Of a DNA stretch of 64,000 nucleotides, positions 6,039-39,144 are shown piece by piece; position 1 is the stretch's first letter; each line of letters starts with the position of its first letter. The position numbers and the translations under genes were made by a program. The notes under the pieces were generated by a model that saw nothing but the letters and a program-made list of their open reading frames with translations, had not been told where the DNA came from and did not search any database. The stretch lies in the NCBI GenBank assembly GCA_965224085.1, contig CBDCYI010000004.1, positions 1,024,001 through 1,088,000 on the forward strand. Direction: 5' to 3'. The DNA comes from Candidatus Marinacidobacterales bacterium (GTDB lineage Bacteria; Acidobacteriota; Vicinamibacteria; Marinacidobacterales; SMYC01).

Positions 6039-7200
6039 TCAGCCGGAACGCAGCCATTTCTTCCCTGTTGCGAACCAGCAGGAGATCGCCGACAAGGACC
6101 GGCTGGTTCCACGTCTTGCCTTCGATTGCCGGGAACCGCGCGAGCTCCGTGAACTGGTTGGCGGCCGCCGCGACCAACGCCAGCTCACCTTGCTCGGACA
6201 CCACCAGCAGCAAGTCCTGGTCGGGCAAGAGCACGAGCTGGCCGCTGCCGTAGCGTCCGCCCTTCCACTTGCGCTTGCCGTCCTCGACGTCCATGCACGC
6301 GAGGATGCGGCCGTCGAAGCCGAAGGCATGGCCTTCGTGAACGACGAAGGCGCTGAAGGAGGGCTTCAGACGGTTCGACGTCCAGCGTTCTTCGATGGTC
6401 CGCTGATCATGCTGATCAGGACGTCGCCGTCCGCGGTCAGTGCCGGCTGCACAATGCCGACGCCCGGCCACGCGTGCTCCCAGACAAGCGTGCCATCGGC
6501 CGGCGCGACGCTGGTCGCGCCGGAATGGCTCATCAGCAGGATCTGGGCGATTCCATCGAGCGTCACTAGATCCATCCGCCGGGTTCGTGCGCGATCGCGA
6601 TGCGACGCGTGCCGATTGGAACGGCGCTGTCAGAGCGCCGTCACGGGCGTCGAGCGCGTTCAGGATTCCGGTCGCACCGAATGTGTATACGCGACCGTCG
6701 CTGAGGGCCGGCGTCGCGCGCGGACCGGCGCCGACATGCGAGTCCCAGAACCGGGTCCGGTCGCGGTGCCTCCACACCGGCTCACCGGTCGTCAGTTTGT
6801 AGCAAGCGACGACCTCGTCACCGCCGCGCTGCTCCTGGGTGTAGAGGAGGTCACCGTGGACCGCGAAGGAAGAAACGCCCGGTCCGATGGGCCGGCGCCA
6901 CAGCTCGACCGGCGGCGACTTCGACCAGTCGGTCTCGATCCGCACGCCGGGGATGATGCCGTCGCGATCGGGTCCGCGAAAGCCGGGCCAGTCAGCTCCA
7001 TTCTTCGCCGTTGCCGGAGCTGACGGGAGCGCCGCCGGCTCTTGTATCAAGTCGGGCATCACGTCCGGGGCTTTGGCCAAGAGCCGCTCCTCGGCGGTCT
7101 CCGCCCACCGCCACGCGAACTCCGCAGCGCCATCGCCGGTTATGCCCTTGCTCCGGACGAGCGTAAACACGCCGCACGCGAGCAGGATCGTCGCGACCAT
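6039..7200 (-). pseudogene. PQQ-like/BamB-like beta-propeller, paralog B (no N-terminus, internal deletions and frameshifts)
   Basis: [13 protein letters not shown]...ELWRRPIGPGVSS, GAGPRATP, RKWKGGRYGSGQ, IEGKTWNQPVL; pieces lie in different frames at 6366-6650. Confidence 0.75.
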
Positions 7201-25873: not shown

Positions 25874-27811
25874 ATGCCCAGCTCGATCCGCGGGCATCTT
25901 GTTCGAGTTCTCGGGATTGGTCTGTCCCTTTTCGTTCTCGCGGAAGTCAACTACGCCCAGCTCTCACCGCAATCGCAGCTGGCGATCTTTGCCCTCTTCG
26001 GCCTCGTTCTTTGCTTTCTCTTGTTTCCGATACGCTTCGAGCATAGGGCGGCGTGGCTCGTCGACGCGGTCTCGGGCCTCGCGGCCGCGTTCGTTTGTCT
26101 CTACGTCGTCGTGCAAACGGAGCCCGCGTTCCGCTCGCTATGGACCGGCGGCTTGTCGCTCGGCGATCGCGCGGGCGCTGAGTCGGCGCTCGATTACTTC
26201 GTCGGGGGCCTCGGTGTTCTCATCGTGCTCGACGCGACCCGGCGCTGCCTCGGATGGGCGATTCCTGTTCTCGCGTGCACGTTTCTGATCTACGCCCTTG
26301 GCGGCTCCTCGTTTCCCTCCTGGCTCTTCCCCCATCGCGGCTACTCGATCGAGCGCATCGTCGGCCAGACCTTTCTTCACAGCCAAGGTGTGTTCGGCGT
26401 CGCACTCAAGGTGATGTTCACCTACGTGTTCTTGTTCGTGCTGTTCGGGGCCTTTCTCGAGGCAACGGGTGCCACGAGCTTCATCGTCGATTACGCCAAG
26501 CGTCTTTTTCGCCGAAGCCCTGGTGGCGCGGCGAAAGTCGCAGTCTTGAGCAGTGGTCTCATGGGCTCGCTTTCCGGAAGCGCGGTCGCGAACACAGCGA
26601 CGACGGGAACGTTCACGATCCCTCTCATGCGCAGCATTGGCTTCCGCCCGCACATCGCGGCGGGCGTGACAGCGGCGGCGAGCTCCGGTGGCGCGCTCGT
26701 GCCGCCCGTTATGGGCGCGGGCGCCTACATGATGCTCGAACTCGTGACACCGCCGGTTACCTATTTACAGGTCATCCGCGCGGCGCTCATCCCGGCGTTC
26801 ATCTATTACCTCGCCCTCTTTTTGATCGTGCACTTCTATTCGCAGCGCATCGGCGCCGGCAACATCGAGCCGGACGTTGCACCTGTGCCCAAGAGCTCAG
26901 GCTTTCCCTACGAAGGGCTCGTTTTCGTCCTGACGCTAGGTACGCTTGTCGGGTTTCTCGTGGCGGGCTATACCGTGTTTCGATCGGTCAGCCTTGCGCT
27001 CGCGCTCGTGATCGTCCTGAGCTTTTTCAATGAGCGAACGCGTCTCGGCTGGCGATCGGTCGAAAAAGCATTCGTGAAAACGGCGAGAGGCGGCGTCCCT
27101 CTCGTGGCCGCGGCGGCGTCGGTCGGGATCATCCTCGGCGTGGTCACTTTGACCGGTGTCGGCACCAAGTTCCCGTCGACGATCCTGATGATTGCTGGCG
27201 AGAACCTGCTCCTCGCGCTGAGCCTCATCATGGTCGGGTCGATCGTCCTCGGCATGGGGTTGCCGTCCGCGGTCTGCTATCTCTTGATGGCCACGCTCAT
27301 CGGGCCTATCATCGGAAAGCTCGGGGTGGTGCCACTCGCCGCGCATTTTTTCATCTTCTATTTCGGGATGATGTCCATGGTGACCCCGCCGGTCGCACTC
27401 GCGGCCTATGCGGCAGCCTCCATTGCCGACTGCCATATCATGAGCGCAGCACTCGCCGCTTTTCGCTTCGCCCTCGTCGGGTTTACGCTCCCGTTCATGT
27501 TCGTCTTCCGCCCCGAGCTCCTGTTGTTGAGCGCGGATGGATCGGACGTGGGCTTCTTACCTCCCTTTCTGGCTTCGGCGATCGTCATCACCGGGATCGT
27601 ACCCCTGGCCGCGGGTATCGCTGGTTATTTCGGCGGAACGCTCTCGGCCGCCATGCGCGCCGTGCTCATCGTCGCGGCGGCGCTTCTGTTCTACCCCGGC
27701 CGCGATGCGAGCTTCGCGGGTGTCGGGTTGTCGATCGCGAACGCGGCAGGGTTCGTGCTCCTCCTTATCGTCATCGCCCGGCAGTTCGGGAGAAAGGAGA
27801 CCGTGCCATGA
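25874..27811 (+). CDS. TRAP transporter fused 4TM/12TM permease
   Basis: GGAAKVAVLSSGLMGSLSGSAVAN, ASSGGALVPPVMGAGA, LGMGLPS, VTPPVALAAY. Confidence 0.93.
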   Translation: MPSSIRGHLVRVLGIGLSLFVLAEVNYAQLSPQSQLAIFALFGLVLCFLLFPIRFEHRAAWLVDAVSGLAAAFVCLYVVVQTEPAFRSLWTGGLSLGDRAGAESALDYFVGGLGVLIVLDATRRCLGWAIPVLACTFLIYALGGSSFPSWLFPHRGYSIERIVGQTFLHSQGVFGVALKVMFTYVFLFVLFGAFLEATGATSFIVDYAKRLFRRSPGGAAKVAVLSSGLMGSLSGSAVANTATTGTFTIPLMRSIGFRPHIAAGVTAAASSGGALVPPVMGAGAYMMLELVTPPVTYLQVIRAALIPAFIYYLALFLIVHFYSQRIGAGNIEPDVAPVPKSSGFPYEGLVFVLTLGTLVGFLVAGYTVFRSVSLALALVIVLSFFNERTRLGWRSVEKAFVKTARGGVPLVAAAASVGIILGVVTLTGVGTKFPSTILMIAGENLLLALSLIMVGSIVLGMGLPSAVCYLLMATLIGPIIGKLGVVPLAAHFFIFYFGMMSMVTPPVALAAYAAASIADCHIMSAALAAFRFALVGFTLPFMFVFRPELLLLSADGSDVGFLPPFLASAIVITGIVPLAAGIAGYFGGTLSAAMRAVLIVAAALLFYPGRDASFAGVGLSIANAAGFVLLLIVIARQFGRKETVP

Positions 27812-29093
27812 AAAGGTTCGGCTTACTACTTGTCTTCGGCCGTCTTTCCCCAATACAATAAAGAAACTCGGCGTTCCTCAAGAACAGCTGGCCTTCGGAA
27901 ACGGCGACGGAGCTCAACGTGTAGCTCTCGAGATCGTTCTCGGCGATGACGCCGAACTCGGCTCCTGCCTTCATGACCGTCGTCACACCGTCTTCGTTCG
28001 TTACGTAGACCTTCCCGTCCGCGAGCACGGGCGATGAGCTGTAAGTTCCAGCCGCAATGCGCTGCGGGCCCCAAATGACCTCGCCGGACTTCGCATCGAG
28101 ACTGAACGTGACGCCCCGGTCGTTCACGACATAGAGATACTTGCCGTCCGTGACTGGCGTCGGAACGTCCGGACCATTGTTGAAGGACCACAGCAGATGG
28201 CTCGTCGTGATGTCGCCTCGGCCGCCCGCTTTGAGGGCGAGCATGGGGCGGACGCGGGTCGGCGCGTAGATGATGCCGTCCATGACGACCGGAGAGGCAA
28301 CGATGCGGTAGTTGCGATCGTTGTCCGGGTTGAGTCCATCGGCTCGCCAAAGCTCTTTGCCCGTCTGAAGGTCGTGGCCAGTCACAACGTCGCCGCCCGT
28401 CAGCACGATCTCGTACTTCCCGTCATATTCCAGAAGCGCGGGTGTGATGTAGGCGTCCGGGGATTCGCGGATGGCGTCTGTCAGCCGCTCGACCCGCCAG
28501 ACAGTCTTTCCCGTTGCAGCGTCAATGCGCAGGAGATAAGACGGCTCGTCGGTCTTCATGCCGTGTAGCACCGGCATGTAGAGTGCGCCTTGGAACAGAA
28601 GCGGCGACGATGCATAGCCCCAGTTGAGGCCGAACTTACCGTAGTCGGCGGGGATGTTACGCGACCAGAGCTCGTTGCCGTCGAAGTCGAAGGACTTCAA
28701 GATACCTGTCCCTGTCATCACCCAAACGTGCTTGCCATCCGTCACCGGCGACGGGGACGACATGTTCTGCTTTCGCTCACGGTGGTCGCCGCCGCTTAGA
28801 AAAGCCTTCCACTTCACCCGTCCGTCCTTGCGGTCGACCGCCCAAAGATGAAGCTCGCCTTCACCGGCCACGTTCAGGAAAACGGTCTCGCCCCAGACGA
28901 TGGGTGTCGCACCCGTACGGTCCGGCATGGGGATCCGCCACGAAACATTCTTCGTCGTGCTCCAATCGCTGGGAAGTCCGCGCTCGCCGCTAACACCGTC
29001 GCGCGTCGGGCCTCGCCAATGAGGCCAGTTCTCGGCGAAAGCGGAGCTAGCGAGTGTCGTGACGACTATGAGTAAGGATAATAGTGTCTTCAT
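27771..29093 (-). CDS. PQQ-like/BamB-like beta-propeller protein
   Basis: Signal peptide, [35 protein letters not shown]. Confidence 0.88.
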
Positions 29094-29134
29094 TCGTTCG
29101 TGTACCTCCGGACCGCCTCGAGGAATATTAACGC

Positions 29135-30684
29135 TCATTCGGAGATCCCGTAAACATGCGTCAGCGTGCGAATGACAAGAAGTCCGTTCGAAGCCGCGGG
29201 CGTGGACAGCACTGTCCCGTCCACGGTGTTTTTAGCGAGAAGCTCGTACTCGTCTCCCGCGCGCACGACGAAGGTCTCCCCTTCCTCGTTGGTGAAGTAG
29301 AGTTGGGCGAGCTCGAGTGCCCCCACTGATAGTCCGGATCGTAGAACCAGCCTACGTTGAGGACTCCGATGTCTTTTCTCCAAAGAAGGTTTCCGTCGAC
29401 GTCGTAGCAAAGCAAGAGACCGACCGAGCCGAGCACGGCCACGACATGCTCACCGTCGGTCACTGGCGTCGCGTTGGCTTGGCTCGACTTGGAATGCCGC
29501 TTCGTTCCCGGTTCACCCTTGTGAAGCTCGCGCTCCCAGGCGATCGCGCCGTCTTTGGTGTTCAAGGCATATAGTAGCCAGCGATGTTCTGAGAGATCTT
29601 CGATAGGAGTGACGTCTCCGTAGAGGCCGGTCCGAAAGGTGTCGTTCCCGGCGCCGCTTACCGCGGTCAGAACAAAGATGCGCTCGCCCCAAATGACGGG
29701 GCTCGACACGCTGAAGCCGGGAAGCTCTGTTTTGAAACGGATGTGCTTCCCTGCTTCCGCATCCCACTCGATCGGTACCCCCTGCGCGTCAGCGATCCCG
29801 GATCGGTTTGGACCGCGGAAACCCGGCCACGGAGCGGCCGGAGCGCGTGCCACGGGGGCGACGTCTGTCGCGACGACGACGTTCGGGCGGTCGATGGGGG
29901 CCGCCTCTCCGCGTTCCTCGGACTCGTCGAGCGGGCGAAAGGCAGTCGACGTCTCGCCCTGGCGGAGGACGACGCGCTCAATCATGCCGCCACGGCCTCC
30001 AAAAAAGACTTCGGCGTCGCTGCCGACGACTTCAAAGTCATGCTCGCCCCTCGGGCGGAGCCGCGCTGAGAAATCTCCAGACACTACGAGGGCGCCGTCG
30101 CGCAGAGCAACCGTGACATAGCGCTGCTCGGATTCGTTCTCATAGCGGCCGACGAAGCGCTCGAGCTCTGCGCGCGAGAGCACGACGATGGCCGCGGGCG
30201 TACCTTCTTGAACGTCGGCGTCCGCTATCAGAGCGCGGAGGTCTCCCGCCGCAATCTCGAGAGCACGGTCATAGGCCGGGCGCGTCACGCCTCCCGTCGC
30301 GAGAGCGGCCTCGACGAGCGTACGGTCTTCGTTCGCGACGCCCAAACGCAGAACAGCGTCCGCGCCGGGCGAGCCGCGCGAGAGAAGAAACCGCGCGACG
30401 TCGAAATGCTTGCCGCTCAAAGCACGGCTGAGCGCGCTCATCTTGTAAAAGCTGTCTTCGATGTCGAGGCGCGCGTCGTGCTCCACGAGGAGCGTCACCA
30501 TGTCGAGGTCGCCTTTTTCCGCAGCGAAGAAAAGTGCGGTGGCGCCGTAGCGATTCCCCGCGTCGACGTCGATGCCTTGCTCGATGAGGGCCCGCGCTCT
30601 TTCGAGATCCCCTTGGCGCGCGGCCTCGTGAAGGTCCTCGCCGTTTTGGAACAGAAGAAGCGCCAGGAGCCATGCCATGCTCAC
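29135..30684 (-). CDS. Ankyrin repeats + linker domain + beta-propeller (internal deletion/frameshift ~29310)
   Basis: LHEAARQGD, GATALFFAAEKG; PWPGFRGP; jumps from WGHSSSP to the last blade LYFTNEEG...STPA..NG.L.IRT. Confidence 0.78.
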
Positions 30685-32096
30685 TCTCCTCCGAAGCAGT
30701 AGAGAATATTGCGGGTGCGTATGTAGAGGCGTCCATCCGCAATGGCGGGTGTCGCGTGGATCAAATCGTCGAGGTCATTGACCGCGAGCACTTCTAGATC
30801 GCCCGCCGGACTGAGCACGGCGACTTTCCCGAGCTCGCTTGCCATGAAGATCTTGCCGTCCGCCGCCACGGGCGAGGCGTAATAGTTGTCGACGGCGCCT
30901 TTGAGGCGTCCCTGCGCGATGATACCCCCTGTTTTTGGCTCGAGCGTCGTTACGATCCCGCCGTCGTTCACCATGTAAAGAACATCCATGTAAAGAAGAG
31001 GCGACGGGAGCTGGGGGACCCGTTTGTGATAGGTCCACACCACGTTCTGCTCCGTCATGTCGCCTTCACCGCCCACACGGATCCCGAGAATGGCGTTCTT
31101 CGACGCGAGCGCGGCGAGGTAGTAGTCATACTCTGCCGCGTCGAGCCGGCCGTCGGCGCTCAAGTCAACGAAGCCGAACCACGACCGCACATGTCCCTCG
31201 GCCTCGTCTCGAGCGAGGAATCCGTCATCGTTCGGGTCGAGTTCCTGGAACGGAGACGCTACGACGTTGCGCCCCGGTTGATTCTCCGGTGTGCCATAGC
31301 CGTTGATGTAGAGCATGTCGCCGGCGAGAACGGGCGTCGACTTCATCTCGAAAGAAAGACCGCTCACCCACCAGAGCTTCTCACCGGTCTTCGCGGCGTA
31401 GGAGGTTAAAAGAAACGAACCGGGCACGAGGATCTCGAGCGAGCCGTCCTTCGCCTCGTGGAGCACGGGCGTCGAGTGGCCGCTCTTCGCTTCGGGGCGG
31501 CGCTTTTGCCAGACGACTTTCCCATGCCTCTTGTCGAGCGCGATGATGTAGGAGTTCGTGGCCTGATCGCAGACGAGGACGACGTGGTCGCCCGCGAGGA
31601 TGGGTGAGGCGCCCATCCCGTAGATATTGTCGAAGTCTTCGACGGCGAATCGCCATAGCTCCTCGCCTTCGAAGTCATAGGCAAGAAGCCCGAAGTCGGG
31701 AAAAAAGACAAAGACGCTCTGGTCGTCGACCACAGGGCTCGGTGATGCGGAGTTGTTGCGGTCGTCGAAGTTCGTGACGCGCGTGCGGGGTGCTTCCCTT
31801 CGCCACAAGATCTCGCCGGTTTCGCGATCGAGGCAATACGTGAAGAGTGTCTCGTCTTCGAACGCCGTAAGGAAGATCCGTTCTTCTGTGACGATTGGAG
31901 ATGAATGCCCCGGAGGAAGCGGCGTCTTCCACACGACGTTTTGGGACGGACCGAAATGAAGCGGAAGCTTTTCGGTGTCGACGACGCCTGTTCCATTCGG
32001 CCCGCGAAAACGCGACCATTCGGATGCGAGAAGCGTCGAGGGAAGTACGAAAACGACAAAGACGAAACGAACGAGGCTGTGGCAGCCGAGCGCCAT
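30681..32096 (-). CDS. Beta-propeller protein with EF-hand insert
   Basis: SEWSRFRGP; DPNDDGFLARDE and DLSADGRLDAAE EF-hand loops; ASPVAADGKIF. Confidence 0.88.
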   Translation of the reverse strand: MALGCHSLVRFVFVVFVLPSTLLASEWSRFRGPNGTGVVDTEKLPLHFGPSQNVVWKTPLPPGHSSPIVTEERIFLTAFEDETLFTYCLDRETGEILWRREAPRTRVTNFDDRNNSASPSPVVDDQSVFVFFPDFGLLAYDFEGEELWRFAVEDFDNIYGMGASPILAGDHVVLVCDQATNSYIIALDKRHGKVVWQKRRPEAKSGHSTPVLHEAKDGSLEILVPGSFLLTSYAAKTGEKLWWVSGLSFEMKSTPVLAGDMLYINGYGTPENQPGRNVVASPFQELDPNDDGFLARDEAEGHVRSWFGFVDLSADGRLDAAEYDYYLAALASKNAILGIRVGGEGDMTEQNVVWTYHKRVPQLPSPLLYMDVLYMVNDGGIVTTLEPKTGGIIAQGRLKGAVDNYYASPVAADGKIFMASELGKVAVLSPAGDLEVLAVNDLDDLIHATPAIADGRLYIRTRNILYCFGGE

Positions 32097-32127
32097 CAGG
32101 GCACCCTCCTTTCTCTGGCTGCGCAAT

Positions 32128-32185
32128 CCTACCCCAGAAGGGCCTACCCCAGAAGGGCCTACCCCAGAAGGGCCTACTCCAGAAG
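32128..32185. repeat. 15-bp tandem repeat (CCTACCCCAGAAGGG)x~4
   Basis: Three near-exact units plus a variant overlapping the DUF3179 stop codon. Confidence 0.9.
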
Positions 32186-33121
32186 CGTCGTGTCCGGGTT
32201 GTTCAAGCTGAAGTTGTACCAAAACGTGTCGAAGCCGGTGAGCGCTTCGACTTTACCGAAACTGCTCGCCTCTGGATCGAAAACAGCGCCCGTCGCTTTT
32301 TCCGTCCACGTTCCGTCGCGCTCCTCGAATCCTGCTTCGGAGACGAAAGCATGGGTCGACTGAAACATCGAGCTCCCGCGCTTGCGGAAAAGAAACACGG
32401 AGTGGCCGGCTTCGAGTGTTACGGTCTTTCCGTTCTCGAGATCCTTCTGCCGAACGGCATAGGCGACATTGTCCAAGTGGAACGCGAAAATGGGCGCTTT
32501 CGTCGCGAGACGATCGTCCTTAGCAACTTGTCCTCGATAGCCTTCGGGGTCGTGGAAATATTGTTGGTAACCGTTGTCAGCGTGCTCTTCACCGTCGACA
32601 GAGAGCACGAGTGTGTCGGGGTGCTTCGCGCGCCAATGACGCCACGAAACCCTCTCGCCGACAGGAAGCTCGATGAGCTTGTTCCCGGCCAATTCACCGG
32701 CTACGGCCGCGCCTTCCATGATCGACCAGTAGGTATCGGTCTCTTGGTCTTGCATGATAGGCGAGCTGTTCTTGAGCCCGCCAGACGCTTCGAAGTTCAC
32801 GGTCTTCCCTGCGTAATCACGGCTGTACACGACAGCCGCATTACCAAGTGGTCACCACACAGCAGCGAAGTTGGTCTCGCCGATTCTGTCGTTGACGATT
32901 TCGTGACTGTTCAGCAAGTTGAGGCTGTAAGCGCGCGCTTGCCCGTCGATGACGACGCCGAGAACCCAGGCTCTGGGCGGCAGCTTCGCTTCGGAAGCGG
33001 GCACGTAGGTCGGCTCGCTGATGGCCGCGATCTGCCCACGTGGGATCACGCGCTTGAAGCCTTCGGGCTCCTGGACTCCGACCATCGCCGCCATCGCGCC
33101 GAAAAATGCGACAGGTATCAT
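32174..33121 (-). CDS. DUF3179-like exported selenoprotein (U-P-L-G)
   Basis: QIAAISEP, ARAYSL..L..HEIVND, AVW-TGA(32852-54)-PLGNAA, FEASGGL, MQDQETDTYWS, DTFWY in one frame; strong hairpin 3' of the TGA. Confidence 0.9.
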
Positions 33122-33287
33122 GTACGTATTGTCGTGAGTCTCGCTCTCTTGCAGGTGTGAACTTGATAACACTTTCGACGAGTTCGAAGCACCCGGCCAT
33201 TTCTTTGACGGCGCTCACCCGGCAAAAGATAATGGGGCCTGCACTTCGGACGAATTCAGGCATCGGTTCACGAAAGCATAAGAAGAC

Positions 33288-35486
33288 ATGTTCAGAAAAA
33301 CTTTTTTCACGATATTCGTGATGTTCACGGGAGGCACGGGGGCGGGATCTTTCGCCGGCTCAGCCAGTGAAGATTGGACGGATTGGCGAGGCCCGGGCCG
33401 AGACGGCCATTCCTCGGAGACCGGCCTTCCCACGAGCTGGTCTCGCGATGGCGACAACCTCGCCTGGCGGGCTCCTTATGGCGGCCGCTCGACGCCCATC
33501 ATTCTCGGCGACCACCTCTATCTGCAAAACGCTGCTGGAGAAGGCGCGAGCCGGCAGGAGCGCATCATGTGCTTCGACGTCGAGACGGGCGAGCTCTTGT
33601 GGGAGCATCGGATCAACATCTACTTGAGCGACGTACCGCCTCACCGCGTAGGCTGGGCCTCCCCGGTCGCGGACGCGACGACGGGCAACCTCTATGTCTA
33701 TACCGTCGGTGGCTCCGTTTACGGGTTCACCGCCGAAGGCGCCATTTTGTGGAAGCGCTCGCTAACGGAAGATTTCGGCCTCATCACGACCCATGGCGGC
33801 CGCACCGCCTCACCAATCATCGATGGCAACCTTCTCATCGTGAGCGGTCTGAGCTCCGGTTGGGGCGAGCAAGCGCGCGGCGGCCAGCGTTTCTTCGCTT
33901 TCGACAAAGCCACGGGGGAAACGCAATGGGTCAGCTCTCCCGGTGGCCGCCCTTATGACACGACCTACGCGCCGCCTGTCATCGCCGACGTCGACGGCGT
34001 GCGACTTCTCATCACGGGCGGCGGCGATGGAGCGATGCACGCGATTGAGCCTCAGACGGGCGAGTCGGTGTGGCGCTTCGAATATTCCAAGCGTGGCATC
34101 AACACCGGCGCTGTCATCAAGGACAACATCGCTATCGTGAGCCAGGGTGAGGAGAACCTTCGCACGAGCCAAATGGGTCTCGTGGCCGCCATCGATGCCA
34201 CCACGCGCGGCACGATCGACGTCGACAGCGCGAAATGGTCCGTGGGCGGCTTTCTCGGGGGCTATTCTTCACCCGTCCTCGACGGCGACCACTTCTACCA
34301 GATCGACAACAGCGCCAACTTAAAGGCGTTCGACGTGGGGAGTGGCGCCGAGGAATGGACCTTGAACCTCGGCACCATCCAGCGAGCGTCCCCGGTTCTC
34401 GCTGACGGCAAGCTCTATGTCGGCACTGTCAACGGCACTTTCTACATTTTGGAGCTTTCGGCCGACGGTGCGTCGATCCTCGACCGAGACGAGCTGACGG
34501 CCGGTGACGAGTTCGAAGAGATTTACGCCTCGGTCGCGATCGCGGATGGCCGCGTCTATCTGGCCTCGGCGCAAGCGCTCTACGCGATCGGCTCGGCGCG
34601 CAAGGAATCGGCGTCCAAGCCGCGTTCCACCGCTCCGAGTGGTTCGCCCGGCGCGCCGGCCTCGGTTCAAGTCGCACCCACGGACGTAACCCTCGAGCCG
34701 GGTGGCACCGTCGAGCTCGAAGCGCGTCTGTTCGACGCGGAAGGACGTTTCGTGCGGGTCGTGCGGATCGGCGAAGCAACGTGGTCGCTCGAAGGTGTGG
34801 ATGGTGCGGTCGATGGCGGGCGCTTCATAGCGGCTGCGGGCAGGGCGCCCCAAGGTGGGAAGATCCACGCGAGTGTAGGCGAGCTATCGGGCTCGGCGCG
34901 CGCGCGCGTGATTCCGCCTCTTCCATGGAGCGAGAATTTTGACGCGCTCGAGAGTGTCCCGCGGCCGTGGATCAACGCGACCGGAAAGTTCGAAATTCGC
35001 GAGGTCAGCGGCGAAAAGGTGCTCGTGAAGAAGGCCGACAATCCCTTTCTACGCCGCGCGCGTGTGTATATCGGGCCTTCGGACTGGTCCGATTACACCG
35101 TGCAAGTGGATGTGTTGGCGACTCGTCAGCGCCGTCAAATGGGACATGCCGGCGTCATCGCGCAGCGTTATCTGTTGATGCTACTCGGAAGTCACCAGCG
35201 ACTCGAGCTGCAGTCGTGGCAGCCCGAGACCGAGCGCACCGCGAAAGTCTCGTTCCCGTGGGAGCCGAACACGTGGTACCGCATGAAGCTCGAAGTCGCG
35301 ACGCTCGACGACGGCTCCGTGCGCGCCCGGGGCAAAGTGTGGCCACGCGGTGAGGCCGAGCCTTCCGAGTGGCATGTCGAGCGGCGCGACGAGAGTCCCA
35401 ACCGTCAAGGGAGTCCCGGCATCTTCGCCGACGCGACACCGACCGAAGTGTTTATCGACAATCTCGAAGTACGAGCCAACGAATGA
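33288..35486 (+). CDS. Beta-propeller with C-terminal Ig-like and lectin/LamG-like extensions
   Basis: [28 protein letters not shown]; VAPTDVTLEPG; WYRMKLEV...RGKVWP. Confidence 0.85.
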   Translation: MFRKTFFTIFVMFTGGTGAGSFAGSASEDWTDWRGPGRDGHSSETGLPTSWSRDGDNLAWRAPYGGRSTPIILGDHLYLQNAAGEGASRQERIMCFDVETGELLWEHRINIYLSDVPPHRVGWASPVADATTGNLYVYTVGGSVYGFTAEGAILWKRSLTEDFGLITTHGGRTASPIIDGNLLIVSGLSSGWGEQARGGQRFFAFDKATGETQWVSSPGGRPYDTTYAPPVIADVDGVRLLITGGGDGAMHAIEPQTGESVWRFEYSKRGINTGAVIKDNIAIVSQGEENLRTSQMGLVAAIDATTRGTIDVDSAKWSVGGFLGGYSSPVLDGDHFYQIDNSANLKAFDVGSGAEEWTLNLGTIQRASPVLADGKLYVGTVNGTFYILELSADGASILDRDELTAGDEFEEIYASVAIADGRVYLASAQALYAIGSARKESASKPRSTAPSGSPGAPASVQVAPTDVTLEPGGTVELEARLFDAEGRFVRVVRIGEATWSLEGVDGAVDGGRFIAAAGRAPQGGKIHASVGELSGSARARVIPPLPWSENFDALESVPRPWINATGKFEIREVSGEKVLVKKADNPFLRRARVYIGPSDWSDYTVQVDVLATRQRRQMGHAGVIAQRYLLMLLGSHQRLELQSWQPETERTAKVSFPWEPNTWYRMKLEVATLDDGSVRARGKVWPRGEAEPSEWHVERRDESPNRQGSPGIFADATPTEVFIDNLEVRANE

Positions 35487-36928
35487 AAGGCAAGACGAGG
35501 AAAAAGCTCGTTTGGGCCACCGCTCTCTCCGTTCTCGCGGCCATGGTCGCACTCAACGTCCACGCCGACGATTCCAAAGACGGTGATTGGACCATGTGGG
35601 GCGGCACCGCCGACCGCAACATGGTGTCCTCGATGACCGGCCTTCCCCTCGAGTGGGATGTCAATGCCGGCACCAACGTGAAATGGATCGCCGCGCTCGG
35701 CTCACAGACCTATGGGAACCCTGTTGTGGCGAACGGCAAAGTGTTTGTCGGAACGAACAATGAGGCGCTTTACGACAAAGAGATGCCGGGCGACAAAGGC
35801 GTTCTCGTCGCGATCAACGAGGCCGACGGTAAATTCCTTTGGCAAATGGTCAGCGACAAGCACCCTGCGGGCCGCGTCAACGATTGGCCGTTCCAAGGCG
35901 TTTGCTCCTCGCCGCTCGTCGATGGCGACGTGCTCTACTACGTCACCAATCGAGGTGAAGTGCTCGCGCTCGACACCGAAGGCTTTGTCGACGGCGAGAA
36001 CGACGGACCGTATCAAGATGAGCAATATAAAAGCCCGCATGACGGGGACATCATCTGGAAGTTCGACATGATGGAAGAGCTCGGCGCCTTCCCACACAAC
36101 ATGTCGAACTCCTCACCCGTGATGTATGGCGATTTGATTTTCGTGAACACTTCGAATGGACACGACGAAAGCCATGTCAACATCCCGTCTCCTATGAGCC
36201 CCGACCTGGTAGCACTCAACAAGAACACGGGCGAGCTCGTGTGGGAGAACAGCCCCGTGGGCGAGGCCATTCTTCACGGGCAATGGTCCTCCGCCGCTGT
36301 CGGTGACCTCGGTGGCGTCGCTCAAGTCGTGATGGGCGAAGGCGATGGCTGGGTACGCGGCTACGTAGCCGAGACCGGTGAAAAGTTGTGGGAGTTCGAC
36401 AGCAACCCGCCCGGGTCTACTTGGCCGAAGACGCGCAACAATATCATTAGTACACCAGTGCTCTACGATGACAAGGTCTATATCGCAAACGGTCAGGACC
36501 CGGAGCACGGCGAAGGGCTGGGCCACTTCTACGCTATCGACGCGACCAAGCGCGGCGACATCACCCAAAGCGGAAGCGTCTGGCACTACGACAAGATCCG
36601 CCGCTCGATCTCGACGCCGGCGATTCATGAGGGCATCATCTACATGCCGGATTTCAGCGGTTTCTTCCATGCGCTGAACGTCGAGACCGGAGAACCGTAC
36701 TGGGTGCACGACACTTTCGCGGCAGTCTGGTCGTCGCCCATGGTCGTCGACGGCAAGATCTATCTCGGCGACGAAGATGGCGATGTCGTCGTGCTCGCCC
36801 CAGGTAAAGAAGAAAAAGTTCTCGTCGAGATGAACCTCGGGAGCTCCGTCTACGGGACAGCGGTTCCCGCGCACGGCGTTTTATACATCGCGAGCCGGAA
36901 TCAGCTGTTCGCGCTCGCCAACGAATAG
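35483..36928 (+). CDS. Acidic beta-propeller protein
   Basis: DWTMWGGTADRNMVS, GSQTYGNPVV, GRVNDWPFQGVCSSP, GQDPEHGEG; ATGA overlap with the upstream gene. Confidence 0.87.
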   Translation: MKGKTRKKLVWATALSVLAAMVALNVHADDSKDGDWTMWGGTADRNMVSSMTGLPLEWDVNAGTNVKWIAALGSQTYGNPVVANGKVFVGTNNEALYDKEMPGDKGVLVAINEADGKFLWQMVSDKHPAGRVNDWPFQGVCSSPLVDGDVLYYVTNRGEVLALDTEGFVDGENDGPYQDEQYKSPHDGDIIWKFDMMEELGAFPHNMSNSSPVMYGDLIFVNTSNGHDESHVNIPSPMSPDLVALNKNTGELVWENSPVGEAILHGQWSSAAVGDLGGVAQVVMGEGDGWVRGYVAETGEKLWEFDSNPPGSTWPKTRNNIISTPVLYDDKVYIANGQDPEHGEGLGHFYAIDATKRGDITQSGSVWHYDKIRRSISTPAIHEGIIYMPDFSGFFHALNVETGEPYWVHDTFAAVWSSPMVVDGKIYLGDEDGDVVVLAPGKEEKVLVEMNLGSSVYGTAVPAHGVLYIASRNQLFALANE

Positions 36929-36931
36929 AGC

Positions 36932-38041
36932 GTGGAATCTTTCGAGTACCGGCCCGAGCCGCGGGTAGTGTTCGGCCGCGGCGCTCTTGACCGCCTCGGC
37001 GAGCTCGCGAATGAGCTCGGCTTCGAGCGCACGGTGTTGACGGCCGATCCCGGCCTACGCGCGACCCCACACGTCGATCGCGCCCTCGGCTTGCTCGATC
37101 GCGCCGGTGTCGAAGTCTTCGTCTTCAGCGATTTCGGCGAGAACCCCGATACCGACATGGTCGAGCGCGGACACGTGTTCGCCGCCTCGAAGGACATCGA
37201 CTCGTTCATCGGCCTAGGAGGCGGAAGCTCGATGGACTGTGCCAAGGGCGTGAACTTGCTTCTCACCAATGGCGGGGTCATCCGTGACTATGTCGGCTTC
37301 GCAAAGAACCGAGAGCCGCTTCTGCCTATGATCGGCGTACCGACGACGTCGGGGACCGGAAGCGAGGCGCAATCCTACGCGCTCATCTCGGATGCGAAGA
37401 CTCATGTCAAGATGGCGTGTGATCTCAGAGAACGCTTTCACGTAGCTATCCTGGACCCCGAGCTCACTGTAACCCAGCCGGCGGCCGTCACCGCAACCAC
37501 CGGCTACGATGCCCTTGCCCATGCGGTCGAGACCGCGGTAACGACGAAGAGAAACGCTTTGTCCGATCTCTACTCCCGTGAAGCTTTTCGATTGTTGAAC
37601 GAAAACTACGCTCGCGTCCTCGAAGAGCCCGACGACCTCGAAGCGCGCAGCGCGATGCAGCTCGGCGCTTTCTACGCGGGCGTCGCGATCGAGAACTCGA
37701 TGCTCGGCGCGACCCATGCTTGCGCCAACCCTCTGACCCAACGCTACGGAACCGCGCACGGTCGCGCCATCGCGATGTGCCTGCCGAGCGTGGTGCGCTT
37801 CAACGCGGATGAGGTGGCGCAGGATTACGCGGCACTCCACCAAAGTGGCGAGTCGCTCGCGAGCCGTCTCGAGGAGCTTGCCGAGCTCGGAGGCCTTCCG
37901 CGCCGCCTCCGCGATGAGGGAGTGCCGGAAGAGGATCTTCCGGGCCTCGCCCGTGCGGCAACCAAGCAGTGGACCGGAAACTTCAACCCGCGGCCCTTCG
38001 ACGAAACGGCCGCCCTGGAGATTTACCGATGCGCCTACTGA
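36932..38041 (+). CDS. Iron-containing alcohol dehydrogenase
   Basis: GLGGGSSMDCAK, PTTSGTGSE, DALAHAVE, GATHACANPL, HGRA. Confidence 0.92.
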   Translation: MESFEYRPEPRVVFGRGALDRLGELANELGFERTVLTADPGLRATPHVDRALGLLDRAGVEVFVFSDFGENPDTDMVERGHVFAASKDIDSFIGLGGGSSMDCAKGVNLLLTNGGVIRDYVGFAKNREPLLPMIGVPTTSGTGSEAQSYALISDAKTHVKMACDLRERFHVAILDPELTVTQPAAVTATTGYDALAHAVETAVTTKRNALSDLYSREAFRLLNENYARVLEEPDDLEARSAMQLGAFYAGVAIENSMLGATHACANPLTQRYGTAHGRAIAMCLPSVVRFNADEVAQDYAALHQSGESLASRLEELAELGGLPRRLRDEGVPEEDLPGLARAATKQWTGNFNPRPFDETAALEIYRCAY

Positions 38042-39144
38042 TAATCCTCGCATTCCTGGCGGACGCGTCGCAAGAGACCGTTGCCCCGAAAGACACGTGG
38101 AATCAGTTTCGCGGAAGCCCGATGCGCACGGGACGCTCGGCCGCCGAGATCCCCGACGAGCTGAAGCTTCTCTGGAGCTTCGAGGCCGGCTTTTCCATTG
38201 ACTCCTCCGCCGCCATCGTCGACGACGTCGTCTATATGACCGCGCTTCCGGGGCTCGTCGCCGCGCTCGCCCTCGACGACGGCTCGGTCCGCTGGAAGCG
38301 CGATTTCGGTGAAGAGGAAGACCGGTTCGGGGAATCCTCGCCGATGGTGGTCGAGGGCACCGTCTACGTTGGCGACTTGCTCGGCGTCGTGCACGCTTTC
38401 GACGCCGCGAGCGGCGAGACCCGGTGGACATTCGAGACCGACGCGGAAATCAAAGCTTCTCCCGTCGTCATCGGCGACCACTTGCTCGTCTCGTCCTACG
38501 ACGAGCACCTATACGCGCTCGACCGCGAGACGGGCGAGCTTCAGTGGACGTTTGAAAGCCTCGGGCCTCTTCACAGCACGCCCGGATATGACGGCGAGCT
38601 CGTTTACGTGACGGGATGCGATGCCTTGCTACGCGGCATCGATCTCGAAGACGGCACCGAGAAGCTACAGATGGACTCGGGCGCTTATACAGCCTCCTCT
38701 CCGGCTCTAGTCGACGGCATCGCTTATTACGGAACGTTCAACAACGACGTGCTTGCCGTCGATCTGAAAAACAAAAAATATCTCTGGCGCTATGAGCACC
38801 CGACCCGCCACTTCCCTTTCTATTCCTCAGCCGCGGTGGCAAATGGCATCGTCGTCATTGGCGGCCGCGACAAGATCGTGCACGCGATCGATCAAGAAAC
38901 GGGCGCCTCGCTCTGGACCTACCGTACGGGCGCACGTGTCGAGTCCTCCCCTGTCATCGCGGGCAACCGCGCCTATGTCGGCTCCGGCGACGGCCGCTTC
39001 TACGTTTTCGAGCTCACGACCGGCGAGAAAGTGTGGCAGTTCGACGCCGGCGCTCCGTTCGTCGCCTCACCCGCGCTCGCCGATGGACGGGTCGTCATCG
39101 GCTCCCAGGACGGCATTCTCTACGCCTTCGGGGCGCAGAACTGA
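38029..39144 (+). CDS. BamB-like beta-propeller
   Basis: TWNQFRG, repeated SSP/ASP...G...W blades. Confidence 0.87.
   Translation: MRLLIILAFLADASQETVAPKDTWNQFRGSPMRTGRSAAEIPDELKLLWSFEAGFSIDSSAAIVDDVVYMTALPGLVAALALDDGSVRWKRDFGEEEDRFGESSPMVVEGTVYVGDLLGVVHAFDAASGETRWTFETDAEIKASPVVIGDHLLVSSYDEHLYALDRETGELQWTFESLGPLHSTPGYDGELVYVTGCDALLRGIDLEDGTEKLQMDSGAYTASSPALVDGIAYYGTFNNDVLAVDLKNKKYLWRYEHPTRHFPFYSSAAVANGIVVIGGRDKIVHAIDQETGASLWTYRTGARVESSPVIAGNRAYVGSGDGRFYVFELTTGEKVWQFDAGAPFVASPALADGRVVIGSQDGILYAFGAQN

Follow-up and report, generated by a model that had tools for sequence, protein, structure and literature searches.

An in-frame UGA in a cysteine-free DUF3179 gene from Acidobacteriota very probably encodes selenocysteine

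We analyzed a 64,000-nucleotide stretch of DNA from a Candidatus Marinacidobacterales bacterium (Acidobacteriota; hereafter the window) and concluded that the minus-strand gene at 32174-33121 is almost certainly a genuine DUF3179 gene decoded with selenocysteine (Sec). UGA codon 90 is very probably decoded as Sec under the direction of a SelB-type SECIS hairpin located within the coding sequence just after the UGA, and Sec90 stands in for the single near-invariant Cys of the family. The gene does not found a new selenoprotein family; it is a member of the known DUF3179 selenoprotein family. Sec decoding together with the reading built on it is very likely the best explanation overall, a judgment that applies mainly to the decoding part. 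As to function, we tentatively propose that the product may be a redox protein that works outside the cytoplasm through a lone selenol nucleophile; the main rival to this redox reading is a role of the selenium as a metal ligand. The features of the gene are listed in Table 1.

Table 1. Features of the DUF3179 selenoprotein gene (positions in the window).
Feature	Position	Strand	Description and basis
DUF3179 selenoprotein CDS	32174..33121	minus	315 codons plus TAG stop; PF11376 match, full-length homologues
UGA = selenocysteine, codon 90	32852..32854	minus	Alignment with Cys of homologues; TGA kept in related loci
SECIS-type hairpin	32808..32848	minus	RNAfold fold; pairing and covariation over related loci
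N-terminal hydrophobic segment, putative signal peptide or anchor	33074..33118	minus	Residues 2-16, IPVAFFGAMAAMVGV; homologues signal-like

Once the TGA is read as Sec, translation on the minus strand from 33121 to 32174 yields one uninterrupted frame of 315 residues. The first-pass annotation, made from the letters of the DNA, had placed both halves in a single 315-aa frame and had stated that neither half carries a Cys; translation through the TGA bore out both statements (0 Cys in 315 residues). The start was set at the ATG at 33121, the alternative being an in-frame GTG at 33172. Under translation table 11 the gene appears as a 5' piece and a 218-residue 3' ORF. The residues around codon 90 are AAVW-U-PLGNAAVVY. 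Membership in DUF3179, also proposed in the first-pass annotation, was established with the Pfam profile PF11376, which aligned nearly over its whole length (residues 29-311 with profile positions 2-292 of 292), unbroken across the TGA, with a score of 180.1 bits (gathering cut-off 27) and an E-value of 8.6e-53. All the residues that are near-invariant in DUF3179 are present in the window protein: Sec90 (Cys/Sec in the family), D125, W132, G142, and H73/N77/D78. The Pfam search of the protein gave no match to a thioredoxin-like family, and a search of NCBIfam found no family at E ≤ 0.01. At the 3' end, a 15-nt tandem repeat (32128-32185; 3.9 copies, 97% matches) starts within the last four codons of the gene and takes in its stop; the copies read ...CTTCTGG(A/G)GTAG on the coding strand and provide three further in-frame stops ahead of the ribosome-binding site of the next gene.

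A complete set of Sec genes was detected in the genome by profile searches: selB (364.9 bits), selA (550.1 bits), selD (279.6 bits), and tRNA-Sec (74 bits), all above the curated cut-offs. The selD match (L010, G000:C5:1545162-1546073) lies inside a 774-residue open frame, compared with 311 positions in the model, which suggests a fused SelD. The first-pass annotation had allowed for a genome lacking selAB and for a TGA that does not fall on the conserved Cys; selA, selB, selD, and tRNA-Sec are all there, and the column aligned with the TGA is Cys in 21 of 24 full-length homologues, Ser in two, and a deletion in one (motif W-C-P-L-A-N). These 24 were our own choice from the full-length entries among the best 120 of 638 relatives in the protein collection. 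Sixty-eight of the best 120 are fragments of ∼208-246 residues consisting of the post-TGA part only, which is the signature of genes truncated at a Sec codon. The remaining 52 of the best 120 are full length, so that full-length forms of the subfamily, with Cys in 21 of the 24 aligned, are also common in the protein database. Two Cys-form members of the subfamily (P0025 and P0113) carry the NCBI name "DUF3179 domain-containing (seleno)protein."

Conservation of the codon was followed in 80 related loci obtained by a scan with one genome per species. The phylum labels in their titles include Acidobacteriota classes, Calditrichota, KSB1, Planctomycetota, Krumholzibacteriota, Gammaproteobacteria, and Polyangiaceae. 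Codon 90 is TGA in 76 of the 78 loci covering the site (it falls outside the coverage of L086 and L094), a proportion that overstates the dominance of Sec because the loci were ranked by their similarity to the Sec-form query; the two others have TGT (L074) and TGG (L038). The selA gene was present in five of five genomes tested from the related loci, those with TGT and TGG included. The TGG (Trp) of L038 (positions 6214-6216) occupies the place where 76 other loci have TGA, despite selA in that genome; either the assembly is wrong there or the reactive residue has truly been lost, and in the latter case the change looks like an isolated one.

These data bear on two other ways of explaining the codon. 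A true stop, whether in a pseudogene, between two genes, or created by an assembly error, would mean that no selenoprotein is made. Gene callers do split such genes, with many entries of ∼218 residues starting after the TGA among the best 120 of 638 relatives, and L038 demonstrates that the codon can differ, but the same TGA recurs in 76 independent assemblies with both halves of the protein conserved, lies exactly on the conserved Cys column, is followed by a conserved hairpin, and sits in a genome with complete Sec machinery; we regard a true stop as highly improbable. Readthrough of the UGA as some other residue, e.g., Trp or Cys by near-cognate decoding, has an even smaller probability: the Trp codon of L038 fits it, but TGA serves as a normal stop for neighboring genes of the window (the gene at 33288-35486 terminates with TGA), 21 of 24 homologues have Cys and not Trp at the site, both a SECIS element and the Sec machinery are present, and the selA gene in the genome of L038 makes its TGG look exceptional.

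Sec decoding is further supported by the RNA. The hairpin has the geometry described in the first-pass annotation: after the UGA come 7 nt, GUAAU-GCGGCUGU, the apical loop CGUGU (32831-32827), and ACAGCCGU-G-AUUAC, the loop beginning 20 nt past the UGA and having G as its second base. A UGA-to-loop distance of this size suits a bacterial SECIS. The hairpin consists of a lower stem (CUUG/CAGG), a middle stem (GGUAAU/AUUAC), and an upper stem (GCGGCUGU/ACAGCCGU); RNAfold added the four lower pairs, bringing the total to 17 pairs with two one-base bulges. The minimum free energy was -24.6 kcal/mol, compared with -19.4 ± 2.9 kcal/mol for shuffled sequences (z = -1.77), and 11 of 200 shuffles were equally stable. 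Taken singly, the window hairpin is only modestly above chance, and its support comes from conservation. An Rfam search of 31500-33800 found nothing at E ≤ 1 except a chance snoRNA row (E = 0.87).

We aligned the window with the 76 Sec-form loci over 66 nt (alignment A2; 75 distinct rows). RNAalifold, run unaided on A2, returned three consensus pairs only, and helix conservation was counted on a structure that was named by hand after this result. On the named structure, the upper helix (A2 columns 23-29 with 35-41) was paired in 89.7% of cells over the 75 distinct sequences. Compensatory two-sided changes were seen at three of its seven pairs (GC to UA four times, CG to GC three times, and CG to UA five times), and none of 500 shuffles matched the observed percentage paired or covariation score. 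The whole named structure was 78.9% paired, versus 32-55% in slid controls. Of the 77 sequences, 25 form the full set of seven upper pairs, 49 form six, and 3 form five; the 38 of the 75 rows that lack the pair at columns 26-38 are those with Asp100. Pairing is poorer in the lower helix, at 60% in the consensus register, and the register of the window is two bases off. The apical loop is CGUGU in 58 sequences, and its GU is invariant.

The same stem leaves a trace in the protein. Residues 96 and 100 (A2 columns 25-27 and 37-39) co-vary because their codons pair with each other within the SECIS stem, in the combinations Ala(GCC)/Gly(GGC), Ala(GCU)/Ser(AGC), and Gly(GGC)/Ala(GCC). The Ala96 codon is GCC or GCU in 65 of 65 Ala rows; with Ser100 (AGC) it is GCU in five of six cases, and where residue 100 is Gly or Asp, each of the 59 Ala96 rows has GCC. 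Three rows have Gly96 (GGC or GGU) with Ala100 (GCC). The subfamily offers a clean case of an RNA signal moulding protein sequence. Gly93 is found in the window alone among this set (Ala in 75, Ser in 1). In the RNAfold fold, the second G of its codon pairs with C48, and L063, the closest relative, has C in place of that G; Gly93 may have been favored by RNA pairing.

Position +3 from the Sec sets the window apart from the motif that is listed for the family. The related Sec-form loci have U-P-L-A (75) or U-P-L-S (1), and U-P-L-G is found in the window alone; with neither Cys nor Thr at +3, the window motif fails the published UxxC/T. The CPLC given in the first-pass annotation agrees with the commonest motif of the wider family, C-[PT]-L-C, but not with that of the immediate subfamily (C/U-P-L-A). 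Its claim of a missing Cys partner proved accurate, with no Cys in the window protein and none at +3 throughout its subfamily.

We extended the comparison to the phylum. DUF3179 was found in 113 of 301 Acidobacteriota genomes, and 64 of the 150 matches listed carry one TGA; these counts take in the unpublished genomes G024, G049, and G152, and there are 66 more matches beyond the 150 listed. For the motif survey, in which the frame was set by HMM, we used 60 of the 64 TGA-bearing matches (the other four being two matches in unpublished genomes and the final two rows) and 40 of the 86 TGA-free matches. The survey of UxxC against its variants, which the first-pass annotation had recommended, gave UxxC in 43, UxxA in 12, UxxT in 3, and UxxD in 2 of the 60 Acidobacteriota Sec forms, and the TGA fell on the first-Cys column in all 60. 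The TGA-free sample (n = 40) contained CxxC in 34, CxxT in 5, and NxxS in 1. Over 101 DUF3179 sequences, the first Cys/Sec is conserved at 99%, D125, W132, and G142 at 100%, D78 at 93%, and H73 at 90%; at +3, by contrast, C, T, A, D, G, and S all occur. A near-invariant first Cys/Sec together with a free +3 position is what would be expected if the first residue attacks and the resolving one is optional. Because the subfamily does without the second Cys of the family motif, that Cys is dispensable, which narrows the candidate mechanisms to those needing one chalcogen.

The genome encodes five DUF3179 proteins, with the motifs CTLC (two), CPLT (one), U-P-I-D (one), and, in the window gene, UPLG. 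The U-P-I-D paralogue (L107:1477-2685; G000:C4:1511072-1511938) is a second DUF3179 selenoprotein in the genome and also has no Cys at +3. An identical CGUGU loop lies 20 nt past its UGA; its N-terminus is signal-like, and its domain is preceded by an EF-hand-like stretch (DANGDGYVTFDE).

Judging by the N-termini of its relatives, the window protein is probably exported. In 72 of the 75 relatives with enough upstream sequence, a strongly hydrophobic stretch of 12 residues lies within the 70 residues ahead of the domain, usually with Lys/Arg before it and an Ala-x-Ala-like site after it; some have a lipobox-like Cys. The N-terminus of the window protein (MIPVAFFGAMAAMVGV... / MIPVAFFGAMAAMVGVQEPEGF) has a hydrophobic core with no Lys or Arg ahead of it, i.e., no basic n-region, and the extension gained by starting at the GTG at 33172 would be acidic. 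The export put forward in the first-pass annotation is therefore backed by the homologues only.

An AlphaFold2 model built from a 25-row alignment (pLDDT 93.0, pTM 0.89) is mostly beta. Strand 83-90 ends at Sec90, and a short turn then leads into strand 95-100. A subfamily profile run against the sequences of solved structures (PDB) gave one chance row (E = 0.82), and a Foldseek search of the model against the PDB gave nothing at E ≤ 0.001, with TM below 0.2. In a VIA-align comparison with 48,161 chains, ∼35 Rieske-type proteins came out on top (best Z 5.6, rmsd 2.8-3.3 Å), superposing 91-94 residues on model residues 59-160 (∼105 residues) at a Z under the tool's caution line of 8. We take this weak Rieske-like resemblance of the predicted model as a lead on the fold only. 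No thioredoxin-fold rows appeared in the Foldseek or VIA-align lists, although absence from such lists does not rule the fold out.

The genomic neighborhood was compared across the 80 related loci. Clustering of the flanking ORFs revealed no universal neighbor; the largest non-self cluster is an ECF sigma factor found at 18 loci. Adjacent ORFs (103 upstream and 97 downstream, no more than two on either side of a gene) were scanned with Pfam. On the upstream side, a divergent ECF sigma gene was found at 10 of 80 loci and a small same-strand PDZ protein at five, and no recurrent neighbor was found among the 97 downstream ORFs. The flanking ORFs scanned at the 80 loci included no gene for a thioredoxin-like protein, TlpA, or CcdA, and no recurrent metal transporter or resistance gene. 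There is also no thiol-redox gene within about 1.5 kb of the four other DUF3179 paralogues in the genome. By eye, an ECF-type promoter-like motif, GGAAT(T)-spacer-CGTT, was seen in four of the 10 ECF-adjacent loci (L029, L031, L033, and L098), positioned about 60-100 nt upstream of the DUF3179 start, between it and the divergent ECF sigma gene; L032 has only the GGAATTTT half, and the motif is absent, again by eye, from the upstream region of the window gene. In the window, six genes for PQQ_2/BamB-like beta-propellers surround the selenoprotein gene (27771-39144), interspersed with an Fe-alcohol dehydrogenase gene; one of the six also encodes ankyrin repeats at the N-terminus. A functional link to the PQQ_2/BamB-like genes was considered and rejected; the arrangement is common to just two of the 80 related loci, the close relatives L024 and L063.

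For the action of the protein, we propose that Sec90 would serve as a lone redox nucleophile reacting with an oxidized substrate or an oxidant. The reaction would leave the selenium as a selenenic acid or in a mixed Se-S bond, and Sec90 would be recycled by a separate thiol, because the subfamily has no internal resolving Cys. For such a lone selenol, the first-pass annotation had suggested either a chemistry distinct from UxxC disulfide exchange or a resolving Cys donated by a partner. An invariant first chalcogen with a free +3 position, and Sec always at the first of the two, fits an attacking redox residue for which a resolving partner is optional. DUF3179 is a large orphan family, and its heavy use of Sec (64 of the 150 matches listed) argues for redox catalysis outside the cytoplasm. 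Against this redox reading, neither the Pfam search nor the fold comparisons gave a thioredoxin-like match, the flanks scanned contain no conserved gene for a thiol-redox partner, and a Sec at a beta-turn suits a metal-binding knuckle better than a redox CxxC helix.

The last point leads to the rival reading, in which Sec90 would be a metal or metalloid ligand, with His73, Asp78, and Asp125 putatively completing the site, and the protein would bind or chaperone a soft metal or chalcogen species outside the cytoplasm. The family motif, with its C-P-x-C-G shape at a beta-turn, resembles a metal-binding knuckle. The family-wide conservation of H73 (90%), D78 (93%), and D125 (100%) and the weak Rieske-like resemblance of residues 59-160 (Z 5.6, about 92 residues at an rmsd of about 3 Å) point the same way, as do several metal-binding families with Sec in the published lists (tables of PMC9312934 and PMC13188914). 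On the other hand, a ligand would be lost wherever +3 is Ala, Gly, Thr, or Ser, as it freely is; the window protein has neither the CxH/CxxH motifs of Rieske proteins nor any Cys at all; and genes for metal transport or resistance do not recur in the flanking ORFs scanned at the 80 loci. Weighing these points, we consider a metal-ligand role unlikely and prefer, tentatively, the lone redox nucleophile.

A bolder form of the redox reading, which we regard as doubtful, can be put as follows. The U-P-L-Ala/Gly clade would be a distinct and widespread class of exported enzymes, almost always Sec-bearing in the genomes fetched, whose sole redox-active atom would be a selenium on the beta-hairpin tip of a Rieske-like, cluster-free domain. 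There would be no intramolecular partner, and the intermolecular Se-S or Se-OH cycle would be one undescribed for DUF3179. If this is true, the published motif UxxC/T misses about one-quarter of the Acidobacteriota Sec-DUF3179 genes (UxxA plus UxxD, 14 of 60). For annotation, such genes are routinely split at the TGA, as the many database fragments of ∼218 residues attest, and each should be called as one selenoprotein.

Several known systems offer a comparison. The E. coli fdhF-type SECIS and the bSECISearch consensus describe an intragenic hairpin just 3' of the UGA with a small, GU-bearing apical loop. The window hairpin is like the fdhF-type element in lying directly 3' of the UGA within the coding sequence, with a GU loop ∼20 nt away, but it is unrelated in sequence. 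The Rieske [2Fe-2S] ferredoxins (2qpz_A, 3dqy_A, and 3gce_A) superpose weakly on model residues 59-160 (Z 5.6), but the CxH and CxxH ligands of the Rieske domain are missing from the cysteine-free window protein, and the resemblance was not found by Foldseek. Extracytoplasmic reducing relays of the CcdA-TlpA/Etrx type share with this subfamily an exported protein with one reactive Cys/Sec, and an ECF sigma gene is divergent at 10 of the 80 loci; the subfamily differs in that no thioredoxin-like, TlpA, or CcdA gene occurs among the flanking ORFs scanned or beside the paralogues.

The closest comparison is with the published DUF3179 selenoproteins. The selenoprotein tables of PMC9312934 and PMC13188914 list DUF3179 with the motif UxxC/T and credit it to Zhang and Gladyshev, 2007 (PMC1976440); UxxA, UxxG, UxxS, and UxxD are absent from the DUF3179 motif column of these tables. 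The novelty implied by the first-pass annotation was thus overstated, since DUF3179 is already a listed selenoprotein family and its listed UxxT form already does without a Cys at +3. The published members are in the same Pfam family as the window protein and have Sec on the first-Cys column and a SECIS directly downstream; the window protein differs from their UxxC/T in its Gly at +3 and in having no Cys anywhere. Sec without a +3 Cys is also listed in the table of PMC13188914 for GPx-like (UxxT), OsmC-like (UxxT), AhpC/TSA-like (UxxS), and rhodanese-like (UxxG) proteins, and published lists treat most such selenoproteins as redox proteins (PMC1976440). These entries belong to other folds and families, with no sequence or clear structural relation found to the window protein, but they have in common with it a single Sec without a resolving Cys at +3 and so provide a precedent for lone-Sec redox chemistry.
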